Assembly (NCBI GenBank): GCA_965250285.1 | Contig: OZ252299.1 | Coordinates: forward strand, 6,176,001-6,240,000 | From: Myxococcota bacterium | Lineage (GTDB): Bacteria; Myxococcota_A; UBA9160; UBA4427 | Direction of reading: 5' to 3' | Length of the DNA stretch: 64,000 bases | In this document: piece after piece, positions 26,745 to 45,124 of the stretch | Layout: the number at the start of each line of letters is the position of its first letter | How positions within the stretch are numbered: position 1 is the first letter of the stretch | The notes under the pieces: model-generated | Databases searched by the model: none | What the model saw: only the letters and a program-made list of their open reading frames with translations | Told to the model about the DNA's origin: nothing | Translations under genes and position numbers: made by a program

Positions 26745-27250
26745 AGAGCTCACGCCGAATGAAGCGCATGGCGCGCAACCGGAAGAAGCCGACGCCCCTG
26801 AACCTGACGTCGCTCATGGACGTGTTCACGATCCTCGTCTTCTTCCTGCTCGTGAACTCGGCGAACACCGAGGTGCTCGAGACGCCCAAGCAGATCAAGC
26901 TGCCCTCGTCGGTGGTGGAGGACAAGCCCCGCGAGACGGTGGTGATCTTCATCAGCCCCGAGGAGGTGACGGTGCAGGGCGAGCGCGTGATCGCGATGGA
27001 TGAGCTGCTGGCCAGCGAAGACGCCCACATCTCCTCGATCGGGGAGCGTCTCGAACAGGTGAACGACAGCGTCATCGGGCTGAACACGAGAAAGGTCGCC
27101 GAGCGCCAGGAGGTCACGATCCTGTCGGACAAGGCGGTGCCCTTCCATGTCGTGCGACGGGTGATGACGACGTGCACGAATCATGGGTTCGAACGCATTT
27201 CACTGGCGGTGCTGCAGAAGGCGCCGCAGAAGCTCGTGAAGAACGGATGA
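26741..27250 (+). CDS. ExbD/TolR family protein 2
   Basis: LNLTSLMDVFTILVFFLLVN with the conserved Asp; ILSDKAVPFHVVRRVMTTC. Confidence 0.9.
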   Translation: MKSSRRMKRMARNRKKPTPLNLTSLMDVFTILVFFLLVNSANTEVLETPKQIKLPSSVVEDKPRETVVIFISPEEVTVQGERVIAMDELLASEDAHISSIGERLEQVNDSVIGLNTRKVAERQEVTILSDKAVPFHVVRRVMTTCTNHGFERISLAVLQKAPQKLVKNG

Positions 27251-27256
27251 GAAGCC

Positions 27257-28627
27257 GTGAGTGCTGAATTCTCTCAGGAGCAGCAGGTCCTCCGCGCGGA
27301 GCTCGACGAAGCGCGCGAGCGACTGGATGGGCTGGCCACCGAGCTGCGCGGCATCGACGCCGAGCTCGATGCGCTCGCAGTCGAACGCCGTCAGTTCGAG
27401 ATTCTCGATGACGTCTGCACGTCGATCGAGAAGCTTGGCGAGGCGGGTGGAGCGGATCTGTTCTGGGGTGGACTCCCGGGTGCGAACTTCGACGCGCACG
27501 TTCGTGCCGTGCGGAGCCGAGCCGAGGAGTTCCATCACCGAATCGCCGAGATCGATGCGAGACGCAGCGCACTCGTCGGTCGGATCGCTGACGCCGAGGA
27601 TGCCTCGTTCGTCCTCGAGGACGACCTCGCAGAGGCCGAGCACCAGGAGGAGATGAAGAAGCTCGAGTGGGTCATCGAGCGCGAGGACGACTCGCCGATC
27701 TTCCAAGCCGGCCGCATGCCGTGGGTGCACGGTGGAGAGGACGATGTCCGCTTCCGCAAGGCGCTCTTGCTCGCGATGCTGCTCAGCCTGGTGTTCGGGA
27801 TCATCCTTCCGATCATTCCCCTGCCCGAACCGGATCCGTGGCAGGTGGTCGAGGTGCCCGAGCGTCTCACGCGGCTGATCAAGGAAGAGCCGCCCCCGCC
27901 GCCGCCGGTCGTGCAGGAGAAGCTCGAGCCGCAGAAGACCCAGGCGGAGACGCCCGAGGAGCCCGAGAAGCTCGCGACGGATACGAAGCCGAAGGCGGCC
28001 CCGACGCCGACGACGTCGGAGGTGGTTGCTTCGGCCGGCATCCTCGCGCTCCGCGATCAGTTCGCGGGGCTCGCCGATGGCGAGACCAGCTCGCGGCTGG
28101 GGACGAGCGCTCGCATCAACCGGACCGGTGAGTCCGCATCGGGCCAGGCTGGCCGATCGCTCGTCACTACGCAGACGCCGGGTGCGAGTGGTGGCATCGA
28201 CGTCGGCTCGCTGGGTCGCGACGCGGTCGGTGGTGGCGGTCAGGCCCTTCAGGGCGTGCAGGTCGCCCGGGCCACGAGCTCGATCGGCGTGGGCGGCGGC
28301 AACGATCGCCCGCTGAGCGACGGCCCGGGGCTCTCGCGAACCGACGAAGAGATTCAGATCGTCTTCGATCGGCACAAGGCAGCGCTCTACCGGCTCTACA
28401 ACCGCGCGCTGCGCTCGAACCCGACGCTGCAGGGGCAGATCGTGCTGAAGCTCGTGATCGAGCCCGACGGAAGCGTGTCGCTGTGCGAGGTGAAGTCGTC
28501 GGACATGGATGCGCCTGGCCTCGCCGCCAAGGTCGTCGAGCGCGTGAAGGTCTTCGACTTCGGCGCCAAGGAAGGCATTCCGCCGGTCTCGATCCTGTAC
28601 CCGATCGACTTCCTGCCGGCGGCATAG
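27257..28627 (+). CDS. TonB-like energy transducer with AgmX/PglI C-terminal domain (GltG-like)
   Basis: N-terminal coiled coil, single TM (ALLLAMLLSLVFGIILPII), PPPPPP linker, C-terminal RTDEEIQIVFDRHKAALYRLYNRALRSNPTLQGQIVLKLVIEPDGSV. Confidence 0.85.
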   Translation: MSAEFSQEQQVLRAELDEARERLDGLATELRGIDAELDALAVERRQFEILDDVCTSIEKLGEAGGADLFWGGLPGANFDAHVRAVRSRAEEFHHRIAEIDARRSALVGRIADAEDASFVLEDDLAEAEHQEEMKKLEWVIEREDDSPIFQAGRMPWVHGGEDDVRFRKALLLAMLLSLVFGIILPIIPLPEPDPWQVVEVPERLTRLIKEEPPPPPPVVQEKLEPQKTQAETPEEPEKLATDTKPKAAPTPTTSEVVASAGILALRDQFAGLADGETSSRLGTSARINRTGESASGQAGRSLVTTQTPGASGGIDVGSLGRDAVGGGGQALQGVQVARATSSIGVGGGNDRPLSDGPGLSRTDEEIQIVFDRHKAALYRLYNRALRSNPTLQGQIVLKLVIEPDGSVSLCEVKSSDMDAPGLAAKVVERVKVFDFGAKEGIPPVSILYPIDFLPAA

Positions 28628-28719
28628 CAGGGCGAAGGATGAGTGCGCACGGTGTGCGCGAGAACGAGAAGAAGGTGAAACGAGGAGAATCCGCGACGTA
28701 GGTCAGACGACGTCAAAGA

Positions 28720-28812
28720 GATTCAGACAAAGGCAAAGCCGTCGAAAGGCGGCGACGCAAAGTCACCGGTCTAACGGGCACACCGCCCCAGGACAGCGGG
28801 ACTGCCGGAATC
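28720..28812 (+). ncRNA. Cyclic di-GMP-I (GEMM) riboswitch aptamer
   Basis: GGCAAA-GCCGTC-GAAA-GGCGGC-GACGCAAA-GTCACCGGTCTAA...GACAGCGGGACTGCC follows the class I consensus (P2 with GAAA tetraloop, P3 with receptor); P1 GATTCAG/CGGAATC. Confidence 0.9.
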
Positions 28813-28887
28813 GCGCTCGATGGTCGAGCGGTCTCGGTGGGTCTTCGCAGGTGCATTGCGAGAAGACGAGCACCGAGGCAGAACACC

Positions 28888-31800
28888 TTGCAGCATCAGA
28901 GCGACATCCGGGAGCAGAGGGGCTCCACCGAACGGGCGGCCACGCCGGTTCGGGCGGGGATCCGGCGCGCGATTGCGATCGCGAGCTGGGCGATCGCGCT
29001 GCTCTGTCTCTCGGGGGCCAGCGCTCAGGCGCAGCCGGTGCCAGCGACGTGTCCTGCCCAGCTCGGGACGGAGACGCTCGTTCGGCACGACATGTCGGTG
29101 AGCTTCTGCGAGCTGTGCGATGTCGGCCAGGCGACGATCGTCGTCGAGAACCCGCTGAGTACCTTCCCGGGCGACGTCGACTTCTCGGACATCACCGTCG
29201 TCGAGAATCTCCGCAACACGGGTCTGACCTACGCCGGTAACCCGCAGTTCTCGTTCAACAACGCGATCCCCACCGGCGCATTCGCGCCGACGGTATCCGG
29301 GACCGACGACGAGATCCTCACGTGGGATCTGCCGGCGGGCTTCACCCTGCCCGAGGTGCCCGGCTTCGGCACCAGCTCGTCGATCACGATTCAGTTCGAC
29401 GTCGAACGCCAGAGCTCGTTCACCGAAGAGGGGCTCGTCACCTCGACGCCCGACCGCGACATCCAGGCGTCGGTCATTCTCGAACCGTCGTGTGCGCCCG
29501 GTGAGATCTACGGACAGTCGACCGGCTTGAACGAGCTGCCGCTGCAGGAGCCCGAGCTCAACCTTGCGCTCTCGGGTCGCAACCTCGACGCGGCGCAGGG
29601 CGGCTGGTCCGACCCCGTCTACGGTCACGAGGGTGACGACATCATCTGGCGTCTGCGCGTGCGCAACGATGGCGAAGCGCCGCTCCAGGATTTCGTCTTC
29701 GACATGGCCCTGTTCGACAGCGTCGGCGGCCCGGGCGACTTCGAGCTGACCCACATCTGTACGACGAACGGCGCGGCGGCCGCGGCTTCGGCGGGCGCGA
29801 GCCCCGCGAACTGTCGGTCGCTCGCGGGCACCAGCAGCTCCCCGAATCTCGACATTGCGGCGCTCTTCGGCGGCGGCGCGAACCCCTACATCGTGCTCGG
29901 ACCGAACTCGCAGCGCTTCTTCTACTTCGCGGGGCGCGTCAACACGAGCTGTGACGAGCTCGATGCGCTGGCCGACAACGCTCAGTGGGGCTGCCAGAGC
30001 GAGCCTCCCGTGGGCGGGATCTCTCAGAGCTCGACGGGCATCACCGACGACGGGACAGGTCTGCTGCGCACCGAGTCTGAGGAGGCTCGGCTCGACTTCG
30101 ATGTCGACTTCCAGGGCGTGAACGACCCGAGCCAGCCGCTCGGCGCCCGCGGCAACGTCGTCGTCACGATCAACAACGTGAGCCGCGGAACGATCTACGG
30201 CGACACGGACGGCATCGAGCTGCAGGTCGATCTGCCGGCGCAGTACGTGGTCGACCCCTCGCTGCCGCCGATCTTCGACATGGATCCGGCGTACGGCAAC
30301 TACCAGGGCATGATCGACACCATGTCCTGGGACAACCCCGACCCGGGGACCGATCCCGATCCGTCGGCCGATCCGAACGCCCAGCTGAACAACGACAGCC
30401 TGCAGTTCACGCTGACGAGCTCGAGTCAGAACGCGCCCGGCGGGCCTTATCCGATCCAGGAGCACCTGATTCGCCACGGCGACGTCGTGACGATCACGAT
30501 CCGCGTCGTTCAGATCGATCCCACGTACTACGACCTCGACGCCGACCTCGACATCCGTCTCGAAGATCCGGCGAGCACGCCGATGCCCAACACCGACCCG
30601 ACCCAGACCTTCGGGGTCACGGGCCAGGCCGATGTGTCGTACGAAGAGTTCTGCACTGGCAACAACCACCTCGTCAGCGACGTCGAATTCGATACGGCGA
30701 ACCCCGAAGACCTCGACGTCGACATGACAGGCGGCGAGCTCGTCTTCATCCTGACCGACTCGGGCGATCCGTTGCCCCTGTCCGTCGAGCTGACCAACAA
30801 CGGTGGCCACGACGCCGACGACTACCAGGCCTACGTCACCTTTGGCCAGGCCATGCAGGTCTCGACGGTGGCGCCTGGCTGTACGCTCACGACCAATCCG
30901 CCGCCGTTGCCCGAGTGGCAGCTGCCCGATCCGCTGCCCGCCACAGGGACAGTCTACATCTGTGATCGCGGAACGATCGGGCCAGGGGACACCGAAGTCT
31001 TCAACTTCGAGGTGGTGAAGAACCCCACGCCACCGTTCGACGACGACCTGACGTTCCGTGCCGACGTGATCGGCGAGAGTCATCTGGCCGACGGCACGCC
31101 GCTGTGGTTCCCCGTGCCTCAGCCTCGCGGCGACGGCATCACCGATCGCGGCAACAACTACACGGTCGACGGCTTGCGGGCCCGCGTGGTCGGCTACAAC
31201 CTGCTCAAGACCCAGCTCGGCGACTGCAACGAGAACAACCCGCCGCCGGGTACGCCCGATGATCTCGTGCAGATCGGCGAGGAGTGTACGTTCCGAGTCG
31301 AATCGGGCGGATGGTTCGGCTTCGAGACGCCGGGCTTCACGTACATCGCAGTCCAGAACGTTCAGGTCGTCGATCAGAACCCCGACGGTCAGACCTACAT
31401 CAGCTCGACCGATCCGCTCATCGAGAGCACGACTCAGATTCAGGGCGTGACGTTCACGCCCCCGGCGGTGCCCCTGACGGACGACTGGTTCGACTGGACC
31501 TTCAACACCGATCCGTTGACTCAGCGCATTACCGAGCTCGATCACTGGTTCCGTACGAACTTCGTGACGCGCATGATGAACGACCCGATCGACGCAGCCG
31601 GGGCGCCGAACCAGCACGCAGCGACGAGCTCGAACGTGCTCACGTCGACGTTCGAGGCGGTCTTCTTCAACCCGTCGATCGGCGGCGAGGAGATCTTCAC
31701 CCTCGGCCCGTCGACGATCGGCTTCCCGCGTGAGGTCTTCCGTCGGGTCGACGTCACGGTGACCGAGCCTCAGCTGACTCTCGTCAAGGAGGTCTGCAAC

Positions 31801-34800
31801 GAGACCCGCTATGGCGTGGGTGCGGCGTGCACGAACTTCGTGCCGCTCGCCGACGACGGCGACGCCTTCGACGAGTACGTCTACCGGATCACCGTCACCA
31901 ACGAGGCAGCGGCCGGCGGCGTGCCCCGTGCGCCCGCCTACGACGTCACGGTCACGAGCGTGACCGACGCCAGCGACCAGCTCGAGGTGCTCGCGCTGAC
32001 GGGCGACACGCTCGACAACGACGGCGACGCACTCGTCGACGGCGCCGATGCGGCCGGCGAAGGCACGATCACGGACACCGTGGTCGAAAACGGCGTCCCT
32101 GCCGAAGTGATCGCATCGTACACACACAGTGACGCGCTGTTGCGCATCGATCCCGGCGACAGTGTAGTGCTGTACTACCGCGTCGACCCCGACGACGACG
32201 TGGCGCCGCTCCAGCAGCTGATCAGCAGCGTGTCCGCGACGTACGACAGCCTCGAAGGCGACTTCGGAAGTCAGTCGACGCCGCAGCAGCCGAACGGCGA
32301 CGAGGCGGGTGCGCGCCAGTACACGTCCGCTCCGGTCGAGGCGACGATCCAGATCATTCCGGTCGAGGTCAGCCCGAAGGAGGTCATCAGCACCTCGAGC
32401 ACGGCCGTCTCGGGGCCGGGCGTCGACCAGCCCGCGGTGATCGGCGAGGAGCTCGAGTTCGAGCTGCAGGCTCTGATCCCCGTGTCGCAGCTGCGGAACT
32501 TCACGATTCGCGACGAGCTTCCGGCTGGCCTCACCTGCGCCGAGGCTCCCGACGTCGATCTCGACGCGGCGCCCTACGACGCAGCGGGCTTCGTGCCGGG
32601 CGGCGTCTTCACGCCGACGTGTACGGCGAACGACGTCATCTGGGACTTCGGCAATCAGACGGTGACGACGTCGAACCGCGTCGACCGACGATTCGACTTC
32701 CGCGTGCAGTTCATCGGCCGCGTCGAGAACGTGGTCGCGAACCAGGATGGGGTGTCGATCGTCAACGGCGGCGGTGGCACCGTCGCGAACGTCGAGTACA
32801 TCAACGAGAGCGGTGGCGCCGTCGTGCTGCCCATCGGGGCGGCGACGGTGATCGTGACCGAGCCCCAGGTCGATCTCGTGAAGGCCTTCTCGGTCGCACA
32901 GGCCGACGCGGGGGATCTGACTCGGGTCACCGTGACGGCGACCAACAATGGCACGGCGACGGCCCACAACATCCGCGTACTCGAAGATCTCACGCATCCC
33001 GAGCTCTCGTACGCCGGCGACGTGCAGGGCACGCTGCCGCCGACCGCTGACACGGTCACGTTCGGTCCCGATCAGCCGCTCTTCACCTGGACGCCGGGGC
33101 TGACGCTCGCGCCGGGCGCCTCGGTGAGCTTCTCGTTCGCCGTGCAGGTGGGAACTGGCGTCACGCCTCATGAGGTGCTCGACAACACCATCCAAGCCGA
33201 CTGGACTTCGCTGGCCGCGAATACGACGGCCCTCAACTCGACGGGGAGCATCGGCGCCGACGGCGCGGCCGACGGCATGCGCATCGGTGCGCTCCCGAAC
33301 GCGGCCGACCCGCTCAACGACTACGAATCCGAAGCGGACGCCTCGATGGAGGTGCCGCCCCTCGCGTTCACGAAGACCGATCTCGACCCCGCGCTCGCGG
33401 CGGAGATCGGCGTTCACAAGAGCTACGAGCTCGCGATTCAGCTGCCCGAGGGCGTCACGCAGAACGTCATCATCAACGACGCGCTCGACGCGGGCGACGT
33501 CAGCTGGGTGCTCGCGCACAACGCGACGTACGACGTCACGTATCAGTTCGATGGCATCTCGCAGGTCAATGGTCAGCCGCCGGCGGAGGCCGCGCTGCTC
33601 GCCTTCCCGAGTGATGGTGAGAGCGGGACCATCACCTGGAACATCGGCGAAGTCGTCACTCTGAGCGAAGACGACCTTACCGTGAACGCGATCACGCCGA
33701 CGATTCGCGTGACGTACTTCGCACGGATCAACAACGACACGGCGACGGACGCGGGCGATTCGCTGCAGAACATCGCGACCACCGACTATACGAACGGCGA
33801 GACGGCGGTGACCGAGTCGCTCGTGTCGGCCGCCGCTCCGATCATCGCCACCGAGAGCACGCTGACGGCGACGAAGGTGCTGGCGAACGTGACCGGCGGC
33901 AAGCTGCCGACCGATCCGCCGGCCTTCAACGACCTGCTCGAGTACACGGTGACGATCGTCAACGCCGGGATCGCGACCGCGTACGACGTCAACGTCGTCG
34001 ATACGTTGCCCCCCGAGCTGACGCTCGAGGTCGCGACGACACCGACCGCGACGCTCAACTCTGTGCCGATCGCAGGTTTCGTGGCCGTGCCCGCGGGCTC
34101 ACCGAGCGGCCCCTTGATCTGGGGCAACGGCAACGGTGATGGTTCGATCGACATCCCGTCGGGCGGCTTCGTCGACCTGACGTATCGCATCCGCGTCACC
34201 ACGCCGCTGCCCGACCCGAGCGTGCTCGCGAACCGCGTCTGGGTCGACTGGACGTCGCTCGATGGTGCCGACGTTCATGAGCGCACGGGCGCAGGCTGCC
34301 CCACGACGACCGCGCCCAACGACTACTGCTTCGGGCCGGCCGTCGCGAGCGGCACGTCCGTCCCCGTCCCGCCGCCCTCCGCCGTGCTGAAGGAGATCAG
34401 TCAGGCTACGGCTTCGGTCGGCGAGTCGTTCACGTACCGCATTACGGTGCCGTCGACGCCCTACGCCTTCCCGATCTACGACGTGCGCATCACCGACGAT
34501 CTCGGCGCCTCGGCGGCCGATCTGCGCTTCGTGCAGGTCGACAAGGTCTCGGTCGCCGGCACCTGGACACCCGTCAACACGGGCACGCCCACGGCGCTGG
34601 TCATCGAGGACACGACCAGCGGAATCGATATCCCGGCCGGTGAGCAGATCGTCGTCGACGTGACGGTGGTGCTCGAAGACACCCCGACGAACGCAACCGG
34701 GCTGTCGTTCACCAACGCCGCCAGCCAGACGTACAACTGGGTCGATGGCGATCCGCTGAGCCAGCGCGCAGGCTTCCCCGGCGTGTCGCCTCCGATGACG

Positions 34801-37800
34801 ATCGTCGGACCCGACACGATGCTCATGGACAAGAGCGGTCCGACCCAGGCGACTGTCGGCGTGCCGGTGACCTACACCCTCGACGTCACGAACACGGGCG
34901 ACGGTCCGGCGTTCGGGATGACGCTCTCGGATCTGCTCCCCGACACCGTCGACGGCGGCACATGCGACGTCGCGCCGACGAACTTCGGCGCGGGCGTGTT
35001 CGAATCGAACGGCACGACCCCGGTCTCGGGTCCGCTCGCGGAAGGCGCCGACTTCACGGTGACGTTCACCCCGGCGCCGACGTGCCGAGTCGACATCGCG
35101 TTCACGGGGACCAACGCCGTGGTCGGTGCGACCGAACGTCTGATCGTGACGTATGACGCCGCGCTCGACCTCGATACCTCGGATTCGGCCGCGCTCACCA
35201 ACGTCGCCGGCGCCACCCAGTGGTTCAGCGCCGAAGGCGCCGACGCGCGGTCGTACACGGGTGCGCTGACCGACGGCACGATCGGCACCGACGACGAGCA
35301 GGATGCGACGACCGTCGCGACGGCACTGCCGCTCTACCGCTTCGAAAAGACGGTGATCAACGTGACGACGGGCCAGGATCCCGCCGTCGACGCGTCGCCG
35401 GGCGACACGCTGCGCTACCGCCTCGAGGTCGAGAACCTCGGCAGCGTCGCAGGCAGCCCGTTCACCCTCGTCGACGAGCTCGATGCGCTCAACGTCGCGC
35501 CCGTCTTCGCACCGGGCAGTCTCACGATCGTCTCGGCGCCGGGTACCGACGGTTCGAGCGCGACGGGGGGTGCCAACGGCACTGGCCTCGTCAGCATCGC
35601 CGACCTGAGCCTGCCGAACCTCGGCGATTCGCTCTTCGTCGAGTTCGAGGCGACGCTCGCACCCGTGGTGGCCGCAGGCACGGTGGTCACCAATCAGGGT
35701 CAGCTCGTGGTGGGCGGAAGTCCGTTCGCCCTGAGTGACGATCCCAACGTCGGTGCGCCCCCCGATCCGCTCGTGTTCGGCGACGAAGATCCGACGACGG
35801 TGACGATTCAGTCGGCCCCTGACTTCCTCATCCAGAAGACCTCGGCGTACCTCGACGGTGACCCGGCGGTGCTGCTCGCGGGCGAGCGCATCCAGTACAC
35901 GATCACCGTGAAGAACGTCGGCAGCGACGACGCCGCCGATGCGACGCTGCGCGACGCGGTCCCGGCCGGCACGACCTACGTGCCGGGCAGTACGACCTTG
36001 AACGGGACGGCGGTGACCGATGGAGCGGGCGGGACCTCGCCACTCGCGACCGGTCTCTTGATCTACGCGCCCGAGGATCCGACGCCGGGCGCCATGCGCG
36101 CCGACGACTCGGCGACGACGACCAACGTTGCGACGCTCGTCTTCGAGGTGCTCGTCGACCCGGCCGCCGCGGACGGCACCGTCATCGCCAACCAGGCTTT
36201 CGTGAGCGCCGTTGGTGGAGGCGTCGTCGATCAACCCTCGGACGATCCTTCGACGCCGCTCGCAGACGATCCGACCCGAGATGTCGTCGGCAATCTGCCG
36301 CTGCTCTTCGCGTCGAAGGATGTCGTGATCGTCGTCGATGGCGGTACGGTCGGTGTCGCCGATCCGGGCGACCGGCTCCGCTACACGATCGCGGTGCAGA
36401 ACACCGGCTCGATCCCGGCGACCGTCGCTCAGCTCGTGGACGCCGTGCCGGCGAACACCACCTATGTGGCGGGCAGCACGACGCTCAACGGCCTGGCCGT
36501 ACCGGATGGCGCCGGCGGGACGTCGCCGCTCATCGCGGGCATCGACATCGCGTCGACGTCGGGTACGCCGCCGCTCCCGGCAGCCGGGGCGGGCGTGCTC
36601 GCGCCCGCTGAGACGGCCACGATCGTGTTCGATCTCGACATCGATGCCGGCGTCGCGTCGGGGACGATCATCAGCAATCAGGCGACGGTCCAGACGGCCG
36701 AGCTGCCCAACCTGCTCACCGATGGCGACGGCAACCCGTCGACCGGCCCCGAGCCGACGGTCATCGTGGTCGGGGACGCGCAGGTGCTCACGATCTCGAA
36801 GAACGTCATCGTCGTGGGTGGCGGCGCAGCCCTCGCGGGCGCTGACCTCGAGTACGAGGTCATCGTCAGCAACCCGGGTACGCTGCCGGCGCAGAACGTC
36901 ATCATCACCGACGATCTCGGGTTGCCGGTGCCGGGTCAGCTGACCTACGTCCCCGCCAGCGCGACCATGAACGGCCTGCCGGCCGGCATCGCCGTCGTCG
37001 GTTCGCTGATCACCGCCGACTACTCGACCCTGAATGGTCCGCTCGGACCGGGTGAATCGATCACTCTGCGCTTCCGCGCGACCCTCGACGGCGCACTCGC
37101 CATCGGGACCGTCGTCTCGAACACGGCGACCGTCGCCTGGAATGCGCCGGTCCAGACCGAAAGCGCGACCGTGACGATCACCGTTGGTGGCATGCCCGGG
37201 GCAGGTGTGTTGTCGGGTGCGCTCTGGCAGGACATCGACTTCGACCTCGTCCAGGGCGGCGCCGAGCGCGCCCTCGACGGCTGGACCGTCGAGCTGCTCC
37301 GCTCGGGCGTGGTGGCGTTCACGACGCTCACCGACGCAGCCGGCGGATGGGCGATGTCGGGGATCCAGCCGAACGACATCACGGGCGAGGCGTACGCCGT
37401 TCGCTTCAGCGCGCCGCAGGCGGTCGCGACGACCGCGTCGTTGGGCAACACCGATTCCGCGTTCACCGATGGCCCGCAGCTGATCAGCAACGTGCTGGTT
37501 TCGTCGGGCTCGGTGCTCGCCGATCTCAACCTGCCGATCCAGCCGAACGGCGTCGTCTACGACTCGATCGAGCGCGTTCCGATCCCGGGCACGGTGCTCC
37601 AGATGCGCAACGCCAACACGGGCGTCGCGCTGCCGAGTGCATGCTTCGACGATCCGGCGCAGCAGGGGCAGGTGACCCTGGCCGACGGCCTGTACAAGTT
37701 CGATCTCAACTTCTCCGACCCGGCGTGTCCGAGCGGAGGGGGCTACCTGATCGACGTGACGGGCGCGGCGACGGGCTACTCGCCCGGCCTCTCGCTGGTC

Positions 37801-40800
37801 AACCCGCCGACGACCGACGCGGCCACGGCGCCCTTCGACGTGCCCGGCTGCCCGGGTGGTCTGGGTGATGCGGTGCCGGGCACCGGCGGCGTGTGCGAGA
37901 TCCAGGCCTCGGAGAACCTGCCGCCGGCCACGGTCGCGCCGCGCACCGCGGGCAGCGTCTTCCACGCGCACCTGGTGCTCGACTCGAGCCTCGGCGCTTT
38001 CTCGGCCCAGGCCTTCAACAACCACATCGCGATGGATCCGGCCCTCGACGCCGCGGTGGCCGTCACCAAGACGACCCCCAACACCGAAGTGGTGCTGGGT
38101 CAGCTCGTGCCCTACGAGATCACCGCGACGAATCAGCTGACCACCGATCTGCTCGACGTCGTGATCGTCGATCGCTACCCGGCCGGTTTCAAATACGTCG
38201 ACGGCTCGGCCCGCATCGATGGCGTCGCCATCGAGCCGACTCGGAGCGGTCGCGAGCTGCGATGGCCCGCGATCGACATCCCGCCGGCGGGCAAGGTCAA
38301 CCTGCAGCTGATCCTTGCGGTCGGTGCGGGCGTCCGTGAAGCCGAATACGTGAACCGCGCCCAGATCGTGAGCGGCACGGGCGACGTCCCGCTCTCGGGT
38401 ACGGCGACGGCCACGGTGCGCGTCGCGCCCGATCCCGACTTCGCGTGCACTGACGTGATTGGCAAGGTCTTCGACGACCACGACCGCGACGGTCACCAGG
38501 ACGGCGCGGAAGCGGGCCTCTCGGGCGTGCGCCTGGTGACGCCGCGGGGCCTCGTGGCCACGACCGACGATCACGGTCGCTTCCACATCACCTGCGCCAT
38601 CGTCCCGGCCGACGGCCGCGGCAGCAACTTCGTGCTGAAGCTCGACGACCGCACGCTCCCGAGCGGCTATCGCATGTCGACCCGAGCCGTTCAGGTCAAG
38701 CGCGCGACGCGCGGTAAGGCGCTGCGGTTCGGCTTCGGCGCTTCGATCGACCGCGTGGTCGGCCTCGACGTCGCCGACGCGGCCTTCGAGCCCGGCGGTA
38801 CGGCGCTGCGCCCGCAGTGGGAAGGCCGCATCGCGCTGCTCGTCGACGAGCTCGAAGAAGACGACTCGACCCTGCGCATCTCGTACATCGGTGACGTCGA
38901 GAGCGCCCGCCTCGTCGATCGCCGCATGTCGGCTCTGGAGTCGCGCGTGCGCGATGCCTGGCGCGAGCGCAGCGATGCGGCGCTCACGATCGAGAACGAG
39001 ATCTACTGGCGGCGTGGCGCGCCGAGTGATCGCTGGAGCCGCTTCGTCCGGCGCCTCAATCCCTGGTCGGGCGACGCCGGCGTGCCGCCCAATGCGGGTG
39101 AGATCCTCGAGGCCAGCAACGGTCAGGCGATCGAGCGCCATCTGCCGCACGACTCCAGCCCGGGTCAGTGGATGACCGATCCCGAGCTGTTCGACAAACA
39201 GCGGGGCGACCGCATCGAGCAGCGCGAGGTCATGAAGGAAGAGGCACGGACCGTCAAGCTGCGCAACGTCGTGCCGCCGATCCGCTTCGACACCGGCGAG
39301 GCCGATCTGCCGCCGAGCTACATCGACAATCTGCGCCGCGTCCTCGACGACATGCAGCACCTGTCGAATGTGCGACTGCACTTCGTGGGCCATGCCGACT
39401 CGCAGCCGCTCTCGGGCCGGCTCGCGAGCGAGTACGGCGACAACGTCGGCCTCTCGCGGGAGCGTTCGGGAGAGGTGGCCGAGTTCGTCCAGCAGGCGCT
39501 GGATCTGCAGCCCGAGTCGATCTCGTTCGCGTGGGCCGGCGACAGCGAGCCGGTCGCGACCAACTCGACGGTCGAGGGCCGCGCGCTCAACCGCCGCGTC
39601 GAGGTCGAGGTCTGGTACGACGAGTACGACGAGAAGGTCGCGGTCGAAGACGTCGTCGTGAGCGATGACATCAAGCGGGTCAAGGTCTGCCGCGTCGAGA
39701 CCGTGTGCAAGATGCGCTTCATCGAGGGGCACAACCGCCGCGCCCGCGTGCGCAACCTCGTCCCGCCGCTGCGCATCGGCGACCGCGGTCTCAGCGTGCC
39801 GCAGAGCTTCGTCGATGAGATCTCGGAGGCACTCGGCAACCTGAGCGACCACAACAACGTGACGGTGAAGCTCGTCGGCTACACCGACTCGGCACCGCTC
39901 GCGGGGCGTGAGGCACGCATCTACGGCACGCACCTCGCGCTGTCGAAGGCCAACGCCCACCGCGCGGCGCTCGCGATCAAGGATGCCCTCGGCCTGCCCA
40001 ACGCAGCCGTGGCGAGCGATGGCCGCGGCTCGAGTCGGCCGGTCGCCTCGAACGAGTCGGCGCGCGGTCGCACGCTCAACCGACGCATCGAGGTCGAGTT
40101 CTGGTACGACGACCCGCTGCAGGAGCTCGATGACGATCTGCAGATCTGTCCCGAGGCACTCGGCGACACGATGATCACGAAGGTCTACGACCCGCCGTGG
40201 GGTCGCATCCCGTCGCTCTCGATCGAGGGTGGTGAGCCGAGCATCCCGGTCGATCTCGAGGGTGCGCTGCTGCGCGCGATGAACGACCTCGATGATCGCC
40301 AGAACGTGCGGCTCCGCTTCGTCGGCTATACCGGCAACGAGACCCTCGATCGGCGCACGGCGCTCGTCTACGGCGACGACGTGGGTCTCTCGACGGCGCG
40401 CGCGCGCCGCTCGATGGATGCCGTCGTGGCCCTCATGGCGCTCGAATCCTCTCAGGCGGAGGCCGAGGGTCGGGGCTACGTCCATTCGGACGACGTCGTG
40501 AATGCGGGCTTCACCCAGGAGGCCGACTCGCTGGTGGTCGTGCAGGTCGTCTACGACGAGCCGGCCGCAAGTGACGACTACGAGGGCGTCGAGATCACGC
40601 GGATCACCCGCGAGCTCGAGCCGCAGGATCCGCTCGCGCTCAACCTGATGCGCATCACCGTCGACGGTGAGCCGGTCGACGATCGCAACCGTAGCTCGGC
40701 CGACGTGCAGCGCTGTACCGATGTGGCGCTCGAGCGCGCGGCCGTCGAGTTCCGATTCGACTCCCTCACGGCCGACCGGCGCCTTTCGGTGGCGTCCGAC

Positions 40801-43800
40801 GCGCGCATGGTGGCCGCCGGCACGGCGGGCGCCGAGGCGGGCGCCGACGCGGCGATCCGATTCAAGGCCTACACCAACTACGGCCACTACATCGAACGCA
40901 CCGAGGTGCGCGTCTTCGAGCGCTCGGCTTCGCTCGAGTCGAAGCCGCTGGCCGTGATCGAGGTCGGACCCGACGGCATCGCCGAGTGGCGACCCGAGCC
41001 GCGCAACCTGAGCGGCCCGGTCGAAGAGTTGAAGTTCGTCCTGCGCGCGTATAGCGAGAAGGGTCGCTTCGACGAGACCGTGCCCCAGAGCCTCTGGATG
41101 GTGAACGGCACGAGCCGGGAGATGGCGGCGCGGGCTCCGGGGTCGCCCGCGAACGCCGCCGAGATCCGCGAGGCCGACAAGATGCTCCGCGCGGGTTACG
41201 GCGAGACCGACGTGGCGATCGCCAACATCGATCTGGGCGGCGCCGGTACCGTGCGCGTGCTCGGGGGCGGCGTGCCCGAGGGCCACAACGTGTGGATCGC
41301 AGGCGAGCCCGTGCCAGTGGCCGAAGGCGGCGAGTTCATTGCCGAGGCCGTGGTGCCCCAGGGCCTGCAGACCGTCGAGGTCGCCATGCTCGACGAAGAG
41401 GGCAACGGCGAGCTCTTCCTGCGTGATCTCGAGGTGAAGAAGAGCGACTGGTTCTACGTCGCGATGGCCGACGTGACGCTTCAGGCCAACCTCGGTGACG
41501 GACCGTCTGAGGAGCTGCAGGGCGAGAATGGGACGATGGATCCCGATTCGTTCGCCGACGGACGCTTCGCGTTCTTCCTGACGGGTCGCTTCGGCAACGA
41601 CTGGCGGCTGACCGCCAGCGCCGACACCGAAGAAGGCGAGCTGAAGGATCTCTTCACGAACTTCATGGACAAGTCGCCCGATGCGCTCTTCCGCCGCATC
41701 GATCCCGACTATCACTACCCGACTTTCGGCGACGACGGCACGGTCGACCAGATGGCACCTTCGTCGGGCAAGTTCTTCGTGAAGCTCGACCAAGGGCCGA
41801 ACCACGCGATGTGGGGCAACTTCGGCGTGAGCTACGTCGACAACGAGCTGGCCCGCGTCGAGCGCGGCCTCTATGGCGGTAACCTGCACTACGAGACCGA
41901 CGCCACGACGAGCTTCGGCGAGCGGCGCGTGCAGGTCGACGGCTTCGCGGCCGACCCGGGCACGATCTCGAGCCGAGAGGACTTCCGCGGCACGGGCGGC
42001 TCGCTCTACTACCTCAAGCACCGCGACCTGCTGATGGGCTCGGAGCGGCTGCGCATCGAGATTCGTGACAAGGTCACGGGGCTGGTCACGGCGGTCACGT
42101 ACCTGCAGCCCGACGAAGACTACGACATCGACTACTTCCAGGGTCGCATCCTGCTGGCGAAGCCGATCTCGGCGACCGCCTCCGACGGGTTGCTGGTGCG
42201 CAACGACGGTCTCTCGGGCAACGAGGCATGGCTCGTCGCGCAGTACGAGTACGCCCCGGGGATCGACGAGATCGATGCGCTCGCGGCCGGTGGTGAGGGC
42301 CAGTTCTGGGTCAATGACTTCCTGAAGCTCGGCGTCACCGCGTATCGCAACAGCGAGCAGAGCGCCGACAGCAGCCTCTACGGCGCGCATCTGGTCGCGC
42401 GGCTCAGCTCGGCCTCGTGGATGAAGGTGCAGGCGGGCTATAGCGACGGCCTCGTCGGCGCGCAGCTGAGCTCGAACGACGGCGGCTTCGACTTCGACGG
42501 CACGACCGCATCGTCGTTCGCGAATGACGACGCGCTCGCCTTCCGTGGCGATCTGAGCCTCGGGCTCTCCGACGTCTCCGAGGCGCTCGAGGGCGGCCTC
42601 ACGTTCTACTTCCAGCGACTCTACGCCGGCTACTCGGTGCCTGGGCTGTCGGCGCAGAACGACACCGACTTCGTGGGCGGCACGCTCTCGGTGCCGGTGG
42701 CCGACCGGCTCGCCGTCGAGATCAAGGCCGACTACGTCGCCGAGACCGACGGGCTCGTGACCAATACGCAAGAGCTCGACGCGCACTTCGACCTCACCGA
42801 CGAGATCACGGTGTCGGCCGGCGTGCGCAACGACGAGCGTGAGGACGACAGCCCGGCGCCGCCCGCGACCCAGCGCGAGGGCGGTCGCACCGACGTCATC
42901 GTCGAGGCCGGGTTCGACGCCGGTGCGGTCTGGAGCGCCTACGCGTTCGGTCAGGCGACGGTGCGCAAGAACGGCGACCGCGAAGACAACCACCGCGGTG
43001 GCGTGGGCGGCCGGGTGCGCATCAACGATCGGCTCGAGGCCGAGGGTGAGGTGTCGTACGGTGACCAGGGGGCCACGGTCGAGGTGGGCACCAACTACCA
43101 GCAGACCGCCGAGACGAGCCGCTACCTCAGTTACTCGCTCGACAACGAGCGGGCGACGACCGGAGCGAACTCACGCCGCGGCAACCTCACGAGTGGGGCG
43201 CGCACGCGACTGTCCGACAGCGCGAGCGTGTACCAGGAAGACCGCTACCAGCACAGCGCGTCGGCGAACGGTCTCAGCCGGGCCATCGGTCTCGACTGGG
43301 TCGTGAACGAGCGCTGGACGCTCGGTGCCGAGTGGGAGTACGGCACGCTGATCGACCCGCAGACGCTCGCCGAGACGAGGCGCAACGCGGGTGGCGGACG
43401 CGTGAGCTACCGGTTCGAAGACCTCTACGTCTCGAGCGGCGTCGAGTACCGATCCGACGACACCCAGCAGCCCGACTCGAGCTGGTCGAAGCGGACGACC
43501 TGGCTCTTCCGCAACGACGCTCGGCTGCAGGTGACGGACGACTGGCGTCTGCTCGGCAAGTTCAACCACTCGTTCAGCAACAGCTCACTCGGTGAGTTCT
43601 TCGACGGGGGCTTCACCGAGCTCGTGCTGGGCTACGGCTACCGCCCCGTTGCGAACGACAAGCTCGACGTCCTCGCGAAGTACACGTACTTCTTCAACCG
43701 CCCGACGACCGACCAGGTGGGCCAGAACGGGCAGTCGACCCTCTATCTGCAGCGCAGCCACGTCATGTCGGTGGACGTCACCTACGATGTGGCCCGCGAC

Positions 43801-44130
43801 TGGACGTTGGGTGGCAAGTACGCCTACCGGCTGGGCGAGCTGAGCCTCGACCGCGAGAACCCCGACTTCTTCGACAACAGCGCCCATCTCTACGTCGGGC
43901 GCGTCGACTGGCAGTTCCTGTCGAAGTGGGAGATCTCGGCCGAGGGTCGCATGCTGCACATGCCGAGCCTGGGCGAGCGCAAGGGCGGCGCGCTCTTCAC
44001 GCTCTACCGCTACCTCGGTAAGCACTTCAAGGTCGGCGTCGGGTACAACTTCACCGACTTCTCCGAGGATCTCACCGACCTGAGCTACGACCACCACGGT
44101 CTGTTCTTCAACATCATCGGTACGCTCTAG
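28888..44130 (+). CDS. Giant (~5,080 aa) surface protein: DUF11/isopeptide Ig repeats, SdrD-B-like, OmpA-like domains and C-terminal beta-barrel-like region
   Basis: Uninterrupted ORF (track start 28837; TTG 28888 has a GAGG RBS); signal peptide ending SGASAQA; repeated K-x(n)-GD-x-L-x-Y-x-I-x-V-x-N units; FVGHADS...NRRVEV OmpA motifs; alternating beta-strand pattern to the C-terminus GLFFNIIGTL. Confidence 0.88.
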   Translation: MQHQSDIREQRGSTERAATPVRAGIRRAIAIASWAIALLCLSGASAQAQPVPATCPAQLGTETLVRHDMSVSFCELCDVGQATIVVENPLSTFPGDVDFSDITVVENLRNTGLTYAGNPQFSFNNAIPTGAFAPTVSGTDDEILTWDLPAGFTLPEVPGFGTSSSITIQFDVERQSSFTEEGLVTSTPDRDIQASVILEPSCAPGEIYGQSTGLNELPLQEPELNLALSGRNLDAAQGGWSDPVYGHEGDDIIWRLRVRNDGEAPLQDFVFDMALFDSVGGPGDFELTHICTTNGAAAAASAGASPANCRSLAGTSSSPNLDIAALFGGGANPYIVLGPNSQRFFYFAGRVNTSCDELDALADNAQWGCQSEPPVGGISQSSTGITDDGTGLLRTESEEARLDFDVDFQGVNDPSQPLGARGNVVVTINNVSRGTIYGDTDGIELQVDLPAQYVVDPSLPPIFDMDPAYGNYQGMIDTMSWDNPDPGTDPDPSADPNAQLNNDSLQFTLTSSSQNAPGGPYPIQEHLIRHGDVVTITIRVVQIDPTYYDLDADLDIRLEDPASTPMPNTDPTQTFGVTGQADVSYEEFCTGNNHLVSDVEFDTANPEDLDVDMTGGELVFILTDSGDPLPLSVELTNNGGHDADDYQAYVTFGQAMQVSTVAPGCTLTTNPPPLPEWQLPDPLPATGTVYICDRGTIGPGDTEVFNFEVVKNPTPPFDDDLTFRADVIGESHLADGTPLWFPVPQPRGDGITDRGNNYTVDGLRARVVGYNLLKTQLGDCNENNPPPGTPDDLVQIGEECTFRVESGGWFGFETPGFTYIAVQNVQVVDQNPDGQTYISSTDPLIESTTQIQGVTFTPPAVPLTDDWFDWTFNTDPLTQRITELDHWFRTNFVTRMMNDPIDAAGAPNQHAATSSNVLTSTFEAVFFNPSIGGEEIFTLGPSTIGFPREVFRRVDVTVTEPQLTLVKEVCNETRYGVGAACTNFVPLADDGDAFDEYVYRITVTNEAAAGGVPRAPAYDVTVTSVTDASDQLEVLALTGDTLDNDGDALVDGADAAGEGTITDTVVENGVPAEVIASYTHSDALLRIDPGDSVVLYYRVDPDDDVAPLQQLISSVSATYDSLEGDFGSQSTPQQPNGDEAGARQYTSAPVEATIQIIPVEVSPKEVISTSSTAVSGPGVDQPAVIGEELEFELQALIPVSQLRNFTIRDELPAGLTCAEAPDVDLDAAPYDAAGFVPGGVFTPTCTANDVIWDFGNQTVTTSNRVDRRFDFRVQFIGRVENVVANQDGVSIVNGGGGTVANVEYINESGGAVVLPIGAATVIVTEPQVDLVKAFSVAQADAGDLTRVTVTATNNGTATAHNIRVLEDLTHPELSYAGDVQGTLPPTADTVTFGPDQPLFTWTPGLTLAPGASVSFSFAVQVGTGVTPHEVLDNTIQADWTSLAANTTALNSTGSIGADGAADGMRIGALPNAADPLNDYESEADASMEVPPLAFTKTDLDPALAAEIGVHKSYELAIQLPEGVTQNVIINDALDAGDVSWVLAHNATYDVTYQFDGISQVNGQPPAEAALLAFPSDGESGTITWNIGEVVTLSEDDLTVNAITPTIRVTYFARINNDTATDAGDSLQNIATTDYTNGETAVTESLVSAAAPIIATESTLTATKVLANVTGGKLPTDPPAFNDLLEYTVTIVNAGIATAYDVNVVDTLPPELTLEVATTPTATLNSVPIAGFVAVPAGSPSGPLIWGNGNGDGSIDIPSGGFVDLTYRIRVTTPLPDPSVLANRVWVDWTSLDGADVHERTGAGCPTTTAPNDYCFGPAVASGTSVPVPPPSAVLKEISQATASVGESFTYRITVPSTPYAFPIYDVRITDDLGASAADLRFVQVDKVSVAGTWTPVNTGTPTALVIEDTTSGIDIPAGEQIVVDVTVVLEDTPTNATGLSFTNAASQTYNWVDGDPLSQRAGFPGVSPPMTIVGPDTMLMDKSGPTQATVGVPVTYTLDVTNTGDGPAFGMTLSDLLPDTVDGGTCDVAPTNFGAGVFESNGTTPVSGPLAEGADFTVTFTPAPTCRVDIAFTGTNAVVGATERLIVTYDAALDLDTSDSAALTNVAGATQWFSAEGADARSYTGALTDGTIGTDDEQDATTVATALPLYRFEKTVINVTTGQDPAVDASPGDTLRYRLEVENLGSVAGSPFTLVDELDALNVAPVFAPGSLTIVSAPGTDGSSATGGANGTGLVSIADLSLPNLGDSLFVEFEATLAPVVAAGTVVTNQGQLVVGGSPFALSDDPNVGAPPDPLVFGDEDPTTVTIQSAPDFLIQKTSAYLDGDPAVLLAGERIQYTITVKNVGSDDAADATLRDAVPAGTTYVPGSTTLNGTAVTDGAGGTSPLATGLLIYAPEDPTPGAMRADDSATTTNVATLVFEVLVDPAAADGTVIANQAFVSAVGGGVVDQPSDDPSTPLADDPTRDVVGNLPLLFASKDVVIVVDGGTVGVADPGDRLRYTIAVQNTGSIPATVAQLVDAVPANTTYVAGSTTLNGLAVPDGAGGTSPLIAGIDIASTSGTPPLPAAGAGVLAPAETATIVFDLDIDAGVASGTIISNQATVQTAELPNLLTDGDGNPSTGPEPTVIVVGDAQVLTISKNVIVVGGGAALAGADLEYEVIVSNPGTLPAQNVIITDDLGLPVPGQLTYVPASATMNGLPAGIAVVGSLITADYSTLNGPLGPGESITLRFRATLDGALAIGTVVSNTATVAWNAPVQTESATVTITVGGMPGAGVLSGALWQDIDFDLVQGGAERALDGWTVELLRSGVVAFTTLTDAAGGWAMSGIQPNDITGEAYAVRFSAPQAVATTASLGNTDSAFTDGPQLISNVLVSSGSVLADLNLPIQPNGVVYDSIERVPIPGTVLQMRNANTGVALPSACFDDPAQQGQVTLADGLYKFDLNFSDPACPSGGGYLIDVTGAATGYSPGLSLVNPPTTDAATAPFDVPGCPGGLGDAVPGTGGVCEIQASENLPPATVAPRTAGSVFHAHLVLDSSLGAFSAQAFNNHIAMDPALDAAVAVTKTTPNTEVVLGQLVPYEITATNQLTTDLLDVVIVDRYPAGFKYVDGSARIDGVAIEPTRSGRELRWPAIDIPPAGKVNLQLILAVGAGVREAEYVNRAQIVSGTGDVPLSGTATATVRVAPDPDFACTDVIGKVFDDHDRDGHQDGAEAGLSGVRLVTPRGLVATTDDHGRFHITCAIVPADGRGSNFVLKLDDRTLPSGYRMSTRAVQVKRATRGKALRFGFGASIDRVVGLDVADAAFEPGGTALRPQWEGRIALLVDELEEDDSTLRISYIGDVESARLVDRRMSALESRVRDAWRERSDAALTIENEIYWRRGAPSDRWSRFVRRLNPWSGDAGVPPNAGEILEASNGQAIERHLPHDSSPGQWMTDPELFDKQRGDRIEQREVMKEEARTVKLRNVVPPIRFDTGEADLPPSYIDNLRRVLDDMQHLSNVRLHFVGHADSQPLSGRLASEYGDNVGLSRERSGEVAEFVQQALDLQPESISFAWAGDSEPVATNSTVEGRALNRRVEVEVWYDEYDEKVAVEDVVVSDDIKRVKVCRVETVCKMRFIEGHNRRARVRNLVPPLRIGDRGLSVPQSFVDEISEALGNLSDHNNVTVKLVGYTDSAPLAGREARIYGTHLALSKANAHRAALAIKDALGLPNAAVASDGRGSSRPVASNESARGRTLNRRIEVEFWYDDPLQELDDDLQICPEALGDTMITKVYDPPWGRIPSLSIEGGEPSIPVDLEGALLRAMNDLDDRQNVRLRFVGYTGNETLDRRTALVYGDDVGLSTARARRSMDAVVALMALESSQAEAEGRGYVHSDDVVNAGFTQEADSLVVVQVVYDEPAASDDYEGVEITRITRELEPQDPLALNLMRITVDGEPVDDRNRSSADVQRCTDVALERAAVEFRFDSLTADRRLSVASDARMVAAGTAGAEAGADAAIRFKAYTNYGHYIERTEVRVFERSASLESKPLAVIEVGPDGIAEWRPEPRNLSGPVEELKFVLRAYSEKGRFDETVPQSLWMVNGTSREMAARAPGSPANAAEIREADKMLRAGYGETDVAIANIDLGGAGTVRVLGGGVPEGHNVWIAGEPVPVAEGGEFIAEAVVPQGLQTVEVAMLDEEGNGELFLRDLEVKKSDWFYVAMADVTLQANLGDGPSEELQGENGTMDPDSFADGRFAFFLTGRFGNDWRLTASADTEEGELKDLFTNFMDKSPDALFRRIDPDYHYPTFGDDGTVDQMAPSSGKFFVKLDQGPNHAMWGNFGVSYVDNELARVERGLYGGNLHYETDATTSFGERRVQVDGFAADPGTISSREDFRGTGGSLYYLKHRDLLMGSERLRIEIRDKVTGLVTAVTYLQPDEDYDIDYFQGRILLAKPISATASDGLLVRNDGLSGNEAWLVAQYEYAPGIDEIDALAAGGEGQFWVNDFLKLGVTAYRNSEQSADSSLYGAHLVARLSSASWMKVQAGYSDGLVGAQLSSNDGGFDFDGTTASSFANDDALAFRGDLSLGLSDVSEALEGGLTFYFQRLYAGYSVPGLSAQNDTDFVGGTLSVPVADRLAVEIKADYVAETDGLVTNTQELDAHFDLTDEITVSAGVRNDEREDDSPAPPATQREGGRTDVIVEAGFDAGAVWSAYAFGQATVRKNGDREDNHRGGVGGRVRINDRLEAEGEVSYGDQGATVEVGTNYQQTAETSRYLSYSLDNERATTGANSRRGNLTSGARTRLSDSASVYQEDRYQHSASANGLSRAIGLDWVVNERWTLGAEWEYGTLIDPQTLAETRRNAGGGRVSYRFEDLYVSSGVEYRSDDTQQPDSSWSKRTTWLFRNDARLQVTDDWRLLGKFNHSFSNSSLGEFFDGGFTELVLGYGYRPVANDKLDVLAKYTYFFNRPTTDQVGQNGQSTLYLQRSHVMSVDVTYDVARDWTLGGKYAYRLGELSLDRENPDFFDNSAHLYVGRVDWQFLSKWEISAEGRMLHMPSLGERKGGALFTLYRYLGKHFKVGVGYNFTDFSEDLTDLSYDHHGLFFNIIGTL

Positions 44131-44299: not shown

Positions 44300-45124
44300 T
44301 TGATTCGTGTTGCCCGCTTGTTTGGTTCGGTCCACTCGCGCGTGTGTCACCGGGCGGGTCGTTCGATCTTCCTCGTCCTCGCCTTCGGCCTGCTCGCAGC
44401 GACGGCGCAGGCCGATTCGCGGTCGGTCTCGTGCCTCGGCCGCCTCGAACCGGGGGAGGGCGTGCGCCGCCTCGCGAGCCCGACCGGCGGCGGCGTCATC
44501 GGCCAGCTGCGGGTGAGCGAGGGCGAGTGGGTCGAAGAAGGGCAGATCCTCGCCACCCTCGTCTCGCGCCCACGACATCAGGCCGTCGTGACTCGACTCG
44601 AAGCCGAGCTCGAGCAGGCGCAAAGCGAGGCGACGCGCCTCGGCAAGCTCGCGACCGGCAATGCGGCGTCGGCGGCGAAGTACGACTCGGCGATCATCGA
44701 CGTGCGCGTCGCCGAGGCCGCGCTCGCGGCCGCAATGTCCGAGGTCGCGCTCTCGGAGGTGCGCGCGCCGATCGCGGGCGAGGTGCTCGAGATCCACGCC
44801 CGCGCGGGTGAGCGCATCGGGCCCGAGGGCGTGCTCGAGCTCGGTGAGACCGACCGCATGGTCGCCGTCGCCGAGGTCTACGAGACCGACGTCGCGCTCG
44901 TCGAAGTCGGCCAGACGGCGACGATCAGCAGCCCGGCCCTCGGCGAGCCGCTCACCGGCCGCGTCGAGCGCGTCGGCCACAAGATCGGCCGCATGGACGT
45001 GATCGGCACCGATCCGATCGCCAAGACGGATGCGCGTGTCGTCGAGGTGCGCATCGCGCTCGACGACGTCGAGCGCGCGCGCGCCCTCACGCACCTGCAG
45101 GTCGAGGTCGAGATCGGTCCGTGA
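44300..45124 (+). CDS. DevB-like membrane fusion (HlyD family) adaptor
   Basis: VSCLGRLEPGEGV, VRAPIAGEVLEIHARAGE, VAEVYETDV, DARVVEVRIALD, LTHLQVEVEI. Confidence 0.88.
   Translation: MIRVARLFGSVHSRVCHRAGRSIFLVLAFGLLAATAQADSRSVSCLGRLEPGEGVRRLASPTGGGVIGQLRVSEGEWVEEGQILATLVSRPRHQAVVTRLEAELEQAQSEATRLGKLATGNAASAAKYDSAIIDVRVAEAALAAAMSEVALSEVRAPIAGEVLEIHARAGERIGPEGVLELGETDRMVAVAEVYETDVALVEVGQTATISSPALGEPLTGRVERVGHKIGRMDVIGTDPIAKTDARVVEVRIALDDVERARALTHLQVEVEIGP

Follow-up and report, generated by a model that had tools for sequence, protein, structure and literature searches.

What does a cyclic dinucleotide riboswitch regulate when it lies between a motor-like operon and a gene for a giant protein, which ligand does it sense, and in which direction does it act? 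This arrangement (Table 1) is found in the window, by which we mean the whole 64,000-nucleotide stretch of myxococcotal DNA that we analysed.

Table 1. Features of the operon, the riboswitch, and the giant gene, in window coordinates.
Feature	Position	Strand	Comment
Agl-Glt core-like operon	18980..28627	+	order kept in relatives; compared with PMC3169522
c-di-GMP-I (GEMM-I) aptamer	28720..28812	+	Rfam RF01051, 83 bits; P1/P2 covariation, 40 loci
P1	28720-28726/28806-28812	+	28720-28724 with 28808-28812, plus G28726-C28806
P2	28733-28758	+	GAAA loop 28744-28747
G20 equivalent	28732	+	G; invariant in the 40-locus alignment
A47 equivalent	28759	+	next after the G21-C46 pair; invariant in the 40-locus alignment
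P3	28761-28803	+	Rfam alignment
C92 equivalent	28805	+	invariant in the 40-locus alignment; predicted partner of G28837 in the ligand-free fold
Spacer hairpin	28814..28830	+	directly 3' of P1; covaries in 40 loci (0/500 shuffles)
Switching strand	28831..28839	+	predicted to pair with the SD region or the aptamer 3' strand
Shine-Dalgarno (SD) region	28871..28879	+	GAGG 28875-28878; complementarity to the 3' end of the 16S rRNA in the window
Giant gene	28888..44130	+	5080 aa from the likely TTG start; one 15-kb frame

The operon and the giant gene

The upstream operon encodes three TPR proteins, a MotA/TolQ/ExbB protein, two ExbD/TolR proteins, a GltG-like protein, and two small proteins without a family (one of exported type and one of 102 amino acids). 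The GltG-like protein, of 456 amino acids, carries an AgmX/PglI C-terminal domain and is weakly similar to GltG. TPR, MotA/TolQ, two ExbD/TolR, and GltG-like TonB-type components in a single cluster are also the composition of the Agl-Glt core (PMC3169522). The operon thus resembles the Agl-Glt core complex by composition, with scores for the GltG and GltE equivalog HMMs that are below the cut-offs. We found no paralogue of the operon in the genome. The known core (aglRQS and gltC/D/E/G) occurs in Gammaproteobacteria and delta-lineages and shows signs of horizontal transfer (PMC3169522). Its function in non-gliding bacteria was stated to be unknown, and it was deemed insufficient alone for motility (Luciano et al. 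2011, PMC3169522). The accessible part of that paper does not mention a riboswitch or, by name, a giant gene with DUF11, OmpA, and barrel regions. Similarly, a literature search that covered few subscription papers found no report of a riboswitch at this gene cluster. Upstream of the operon, by about 3 kb, is a complete rRNA operon (16S, two tRNAs, 23S, and 5S; 10348-15945).

The giant protein begins with a hydrophobic segment that is probably part of a signal peptide. It contains DUF11/Ig-like repeats, an SdrD-B-like domain, OmpA peptidoglycan-binding domains near residues 3466-3736, and a C-terminal beta-barrel-like region. (An atlas search with the C-terminal 776 amino acids returned unnamed clusters and one Porin_4 lead, present in 33% of members.) The 5,080-residue product is a predicted surface protein. 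No paralogue of its gene was found in the genome. The likely start codon is TTG 28888, which is 83 nt from C92, a spacing that is usual among relatives. We rejected GTG 28837, the start chosen by the ORF finder, because it is within the switching strand and has a weaker Shine-Dalgarno interaction (-3.1 vs. -5.9 for TTG 28888). Among relatives (L024, L027, L031, L033, L034, L025, and L026), the N-terminal region of the giant gene is swapped, so that the N-terminal domains encoded after the shared operon and riboswitch differ, as in modular adhesins. On the 3' side of the giant gene, on the same strand, are genes for an HlyD-like protein, an FtsX-type permease, and an ABC ATPase (44300-47370); the ATPase is fused to a TerB-like domain.

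The operon and the giant gene are probably transcribed together, because the 92 nt between the operon's stop codon and P1 contain no match to a + strand terminator or a sigma70 promoter. This bears on the original prediction that the giant gene is regulated separately from the motor operon. Separate control is plausible post-transcriptionally, but separate transcription is disfavored. We also considered an internal promoter and rejected it, as there is no sigma70 match and a TGA(C/A)A motif lacks a fitting -10 element. Of 51 loci, 11 have this motif between 20 and 34 nt ahead of P1, as compared to 2 with the motif in a control span of 35-49 nt; the window does not have it at such a distance. 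Just 5' of P1, about half of the related loci have a small hairpin (28686-28719 in the window, where it is weak), which is often preceded by TGACA or TGAAA, 25-31 nt before P1 (11/51 loci). Perhaps this hairpin is a stem that protects an RNA end, or a promoter element.

The aptamer

As first proposed, the RNA has the GEMM-I architecture. With cmscan and Rfam, RF01051 (c-di-GMP-I) matches 28722-28809 on the + strand at 83.0 bits (E = 7.3e-15), well above its gathering score of 35 bits. The alignment spans model positions 1-87 with zero non-standard pairs, and no other model of the Rfam clan scores higher for this segment. The limits that had been drawn by eye, 28720 and 28812, are exactly the two ends of P1. 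The position ahead of the giant gene is also correct; P1 ends 76 nt before TTG 28888. Across 40 related loci, the pairs of P1 and P2 covary (0 of 500 shuffles scored as high).

We then examined the ligand-contacting residues. In the riboswitch Vc2 from Vibrio cholerae, the pairs G21-C46, C22-G45, G14-C93, and C44-G83 have been published (PMC11705072), G20 contacts G-alpha's Hoogsteen edge, and C92 is the Watson-Crick partner of G-beta (PMC6140456). In the window, G21-C46 maps to G28733-C28758, G14-C93 to G28726-C28806, and C44-G83 to C28756-G28796. Since the published pairs and contacts map in this way, the original assignments of G28732 as G20 and of C28805 as C92 are right. G21-C46 is invariant in the 40 loci and G14-C93 is present in 39 of them. 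Both the GAAA loop and the inter-helix pair C28756/G28796 are present in the window. Sensors of cGAMP have an A in place of G20 (PMC6140456), and this hallmark of GEMM-Ib is absent, as position 20 is G28732. By every testable sequence feature, the RNA is a member of c-di-GMP-I and not of GEMM-Ib.

We found no other GEMM-I copy in the 6.25-Mb genome, either when 150 of 164 candidates were scored or with a regular expression and two nhmmer profiles. Contigs from three DNA runs of one study have the aptamer without variants; these are not independent evidence because the study may be the window's own source.

Conservation of the locus

Among 61 related genomes, 29 have RF01051 matches (52 in total). 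In the first set of loci that we fetched, the aptamer is directly 3' of the GltG-like gene in 17 of 29 relatives' loci. A stricter aptamer motif was found in 27 of 68 family genomes, and a reversed control gave 0. We also compiled loci from GTDB genomes (the best 80 of 575; some came from genomes already among the family hits and were de-duplicated). Within these 80 loci, the order of the six-gene operon is identical in all 56 with 5.9 kb upstream, and a homologue of the giant gene is 3' of the operon in all 58 with 2 kb downstream. The junction aptamer is present in 36 of the 80 (35 of the 75 with at least 400 nt downstream), always with G20. Of the 44 loci that lacked an nhmmer match, we rescanned 15 with Rfam and found no aptamer in those 15.

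When we built a quick tree of the GltG-like protein and rooted it at the midpoint, every carrier of the aptamer fell in one 72-row branch with a support of 100. Thirteen of its rows are aptamer-free, and there were several losses of the aptamer inside this clade. Relatives in the same family fall together with records that carry the label Myxococcota. Because the carrier branch mixes Gammaproteobacteria (Woeseiaceae and Steroidobacteraceae) with Myxococcota, the tree suggests that the locus was transferred together with its switch. In one locus from the same genus as the window (L025, at the start of a contig of genome G001), the aptamer and platform are nearer to those of gammaproteobacterial loci (L104 and L115) than to the window's, which indicates either recent transfer or mis-binning.

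A putative translational off switch

We consider it reasonably likely that this c-di-GMP-I riboswitch is a translational off switch on the giant surface protein, placed after the Agl-Glt core-like operon. The switch would be read from the operon's own transcript. If no ligand is bound, the switching strand, which is transcribed before the ribosome-binding site, would invade the 3' strand of the aptamer, including C92 and C93 (the on helix). The GAGG would then be open to ribosomes as it emerges, which is a kinetic prediction. If c-di-GMP is bound, P1 and P3 would be locked, and the switching strand and the SD region would form a 9-bp helix (the off helix) that would prevent initiation at TTG 28888. 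The costly 5,080-residue protein would be made only at low c-di-GMP, and this element would not gate the motor genes. The direction of control, off at high c-di-GMP, is likely and is new here, as the original prediction gave none. It would be the reverse of what is expected for an adhesin of the sessile state.

In the window, 28831-28839 can form nine base pairs with 28871-28879. In the fold with P1 locked, the Shine-Dalgarno sequence is fully paired (probability unpaired, 0.00), at -76.5 kcal/mol. Forcing it open gives -68.2 kcal/mol; C28805-G28808 then pair with 28834-28837 (with C28805 opposite G28837), which takes C92 and C93 out of the pocket. In ensembles computed length by length, C92 is in a downstream helix in RNAs that end at 28842-28872 (probability 0.79-0.97), and the SD helix has a probability of 0.99 once the RNA reaches 28878. 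At full length, the off fold is ahead at equilibrium by 6-8 kcal/mol, even ligand-free. The window has no U-tract after either helix (3 U in 8 nt after the on helix) and no + strand terminator, so we rejected an intrinsic terminator as its platform.

We then analysed the platforms of relatives. Of 51 distinct loci, we used 46, with 9 starts chosen by eye and with kin that are not independent. (The five dropped loci were one at a contig end, three without a called start, and one with a start directly after P1.) Compared with shuffled sequences, pairing of the Shine-Dalgarno sequence is more extensive in 37 of the 46. In 23 (4.7 expected), the strand that pairs best with the aptamer 3' strand overlaps the anti-SD strand, but the z-scores of individual loci are weak (6 below -2). 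In 40 of the 46 loci, invasion of the aptamer 3' strand exceeds that in shuffles (median 10.3 vs. 7.9 nt). Releasing the aptamer opens the Shine-Dalgarno sequence at equilibrium in 14 of 46 loci, has the opposite effect in 1, and leaves 31 unchanged. Since so few loci open at equilibrium, the off-switch model requires kinetic control.

Leaving out six divergent loci gave a 40-row alignment. In these rows, the off helix is 73% paired (35-50% in slid controls) and the on helix is 84-90% paired (at most 63% in slid controls), and the layout of the platform is conserved in about 40 loci. Of the 40 rows, 38 retain the C that precedes GAGG. More broadly, a C precedes GAG[GA] at 30 of 33 platform sites, as compared to 421 of 915 genome-wide, and this C is not needed for a Shine-Dalgarno sequence. 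All seven loci with a 2-nt insertion in the 3' strand of P1 also change the switching strand to UCGUU, which is possibly one event. In another locus (L103), the start codon is immediately 3' of P1 and there is no switching strand, which makes it a minimal variant of the platform.

Several observations weigh against the off-switch model. First, covariation is not significant for either helix: 46 of 500 shuffles were as high for the off helix (17 of 500 for pairing), and 93 and 159 of 500 were as high for the two registers of the on helix. Second, the ligand-free equilibrium is the off fold. Third, shuffled linkers also invade the aptamer. Fourth, 5 of 40 relatives have a U-rich stretch after the on helix that could be a terminator.

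Alternative modes of action

That last observation would fit an on switch, as in the adhesin paradigm: the helix between the aptamer and the switching strand would be a terminator or a decay signal in the absence of ligand, and binding of c-di-GMP would let the giant gene be expressed. At least 5 U in 8 nt follow the on helix in 5 of 40 loci, and at least 4 U in 11 of 40; these may be pauses, or terminators that make an on switch. The cGAMP switch of pilM works in this manner (PMC9262584), and predicted adhesins of Clostridioides difficile are raised by c-di-GMP via class II switches (PMC6366702). However, the window lacks both the U-tract and a + strand terminator, the Shine-Dalgarno sequence is buried in the 9-bp helix when the ligand is bound, and the C before GAGG, which is not part of the Shine-Dalgarno sequence, is conserved. 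We consider an on switch to be unlikely.

Alternatively, the aptamer might act mainly on the motor operon, with bound c-di-GMP shielding the 3' end of its RNA and the hairpin damping translation of the giant gene constitutively. Vc2 stabilises upstream RNA (bioRxiv 10.1101/617340), and in the window the aptamer is 92 nt after the last gene of the operon with no terminator between them. This precedent and this position make stabilisation of the upstream RNA a real alternative, and at equilibrium the Shine-Dalgarno sequence is buried whether or not ligand is present. But 3' protection does not need a conserved switching strand with complementarity to the aptamer as well as to the SD region, and as the main function it is improbable. 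The two effects, 3' protection and translational repression, could coexist.

The ligand

The aptamer, with G20 and C92, is predicted to bind c-di-GMP. The original prediction of c-di-GMP rather than cGAMP is supported by G28732 and by the G20 of all the junction aptamers. A caveat is that position 20 guides selectivity without fully fixing it (PMC9262584).

The G20/A20 distinction is not idle, because the host plausibly makes cGAMP too. The specificity site could be read in 11 GGDEF domains of its genome; ten are of the Asp type and one is of the Ser type, which is Hypr-like (L003:598-2010; G000:C1 near 6050041). The spacing in the Ser/GGDEF protein is like that of Asn339, Ser348, and Asp374 in GacA (compared using PMC6456294 and PMC9140294). 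Of the order's 61 genomes, 58 have orthologues; among 30 orthologues that we checked, 29 have Ser and one has Thr. (One orthologue's locus, L171, has an internal TAG.) Despite the Hypr-type cyclase, the window's genome has no A20 riboswitch, so any cGAMP that it makes would have to be sensed by another receptor.

Among the 52 RF01051 matches in relatives, position 20 is G in 39, A in 12, and U in 1 (which is below the cut-off). All 12 of the A20 aptamers are directly before genes for SLT lytic transglycosylases (L036-L040, L042, L043, L046, L196, L197, L200, and L202). Five genomes (G005, G008, G021, G027, and G036) have both G20 at the junction of the operon and the giant gene and A20 at an SLT gene. 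In the A20 aptamers, the 3' strand of P1 overlaps a GGAG ribosome-binding site 10-12 nt before the start, which suggests direct sequestration. Their unusual P3 sequence also occurs in many G20 aptamers of the same lineage. One contig (G018:C69; L040, L188, L190, and L201) carries four GEMM-I aptamers, including one with A20 and one with G20 within 2 kb. In the window's genome, the closest match to the SLT gene is directly 3' of another gene, with no aptamer seen.

Could the switch respond to 3',3'-cGAMP in vivo, or to both dinucleotides, despite G20? The Ser/GGDEF domain and its wide occurrence in the order would fit this. So would the riboswitch Cd1 of C. difficile, in which changing the equivalent of position 20 from G to A or from G to C had no large effect (PMC9262584), and the gliding of Bdellovibrio, which is driven by Hypr-made cGAMP (PMC9140294). 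On the other hand, wild-type Vc2, with G20, discriminates against cGAMP (PMC6140456). The lineage keeps its A20 aptamers at a different gene, five genomes have both forms at their separate sites, and the window's genome has ten canonical Asp-type domains. We judge a response to cGAMP to be quite unlikely.

Finally, the element might be a relic that has decayed or lost its function in the window's genome, but this is extremely unlikely. Among the 75 related loci (from the best 80 of 575) that extend at least 400 nt downstream, 40 have a junction without the aptamer, and there were several losses in the carrier clade. However, the window's match is full-length at 83 bits with all contacts and tertiary pairs intact, and its changes from the consensus in the switching strand and the SD region match each other (G37-C73 and G39-C71).

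Comparison to known systems

The window's aptamer shares with Vc2 the three-stem fold, G20, A47, C92, the pairs G14-C93, G21-C46, and C44-G83, and the GAAA loop. Vc2 is also an off switch (bioRxiv 10.1101/617340). Unlike Vc2, the window's element is inside a probable operon, before a giant gene of the secreted type, and it has its own platform of spacer hairpin, switching strand, and SD helix. Off switches are frequent in class I, and all seven functional class I switches in C. difficile are of this type (PMC6366702). In the C. difficile class I off switch Cd1, the ligand-free fold pairs the equivalent of C92 downstream, as in our model, and control is co-transcriptional, as we predict for the window (PMC9262584). 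Whereas Cd1 terminates the transcription of flagellar genes, the window's element has no U-tract and its helix would bury the ribosome-binding site. The GEMM-Ib switches of Geobacter (Gs1761, Gm0970, and pilM) have the same fold, and a Hypr-type cyclase is present in the host lineage of both. In contrast to these, the window has G28732 instead of A20, and the A20 form in its lineage is found only before SLT transglycosylases.

Implications

The original prediction tied the giant protein to the switch between sessile and motile states. This link did not find support: no flagellin was found in the 95% complete genome, the core complex was deemed insufficient for motility (PMC3169522), and only one gene with an AgmX/PglI tail is above the cut-off, so no separate GltJ-type gene is seen. 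(Beyond the core, the full gliding machinery has the modules gltA, B, H, I, J, and K.) The genome has five PilT genes above the cut-off. The sessile/motile reading is an extrapolation, and the direction that we predict is opposite to that of a biofilm adhesin.

A broader proposal, which we offer tentatively and which is doubtful as a whole, is that the giant protein is the outer-membrane partner or cargo of the Agl-Glt core motor of non-gliding bacteria. With an off switch in mid-operon, the orphan core would serve a low-c-di-GMP state, and the lineage would split its signals by one base (G20 here and A20 at the transglycosylases). If so, cells would keep the motor and build the surface part only at low c-di-GMP, and the orphan core complex would be for a roaming or dispersal state rather than for biofilm adhesion.

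The class of the riboswitch is textbook, and its address is the useful part. With a conserved c-di-GMP sensor at this site, the activity of the core complex can be sought under a defined condition (low or high c-di-GMP), and the giant protein becomes a candidate surface partner. The lineage has c-di-GMP-type and cGAMP-type aptamers that coexist at different genes, and the putative translational platform comes with about 40 natural variants that could be tested in E. coli.
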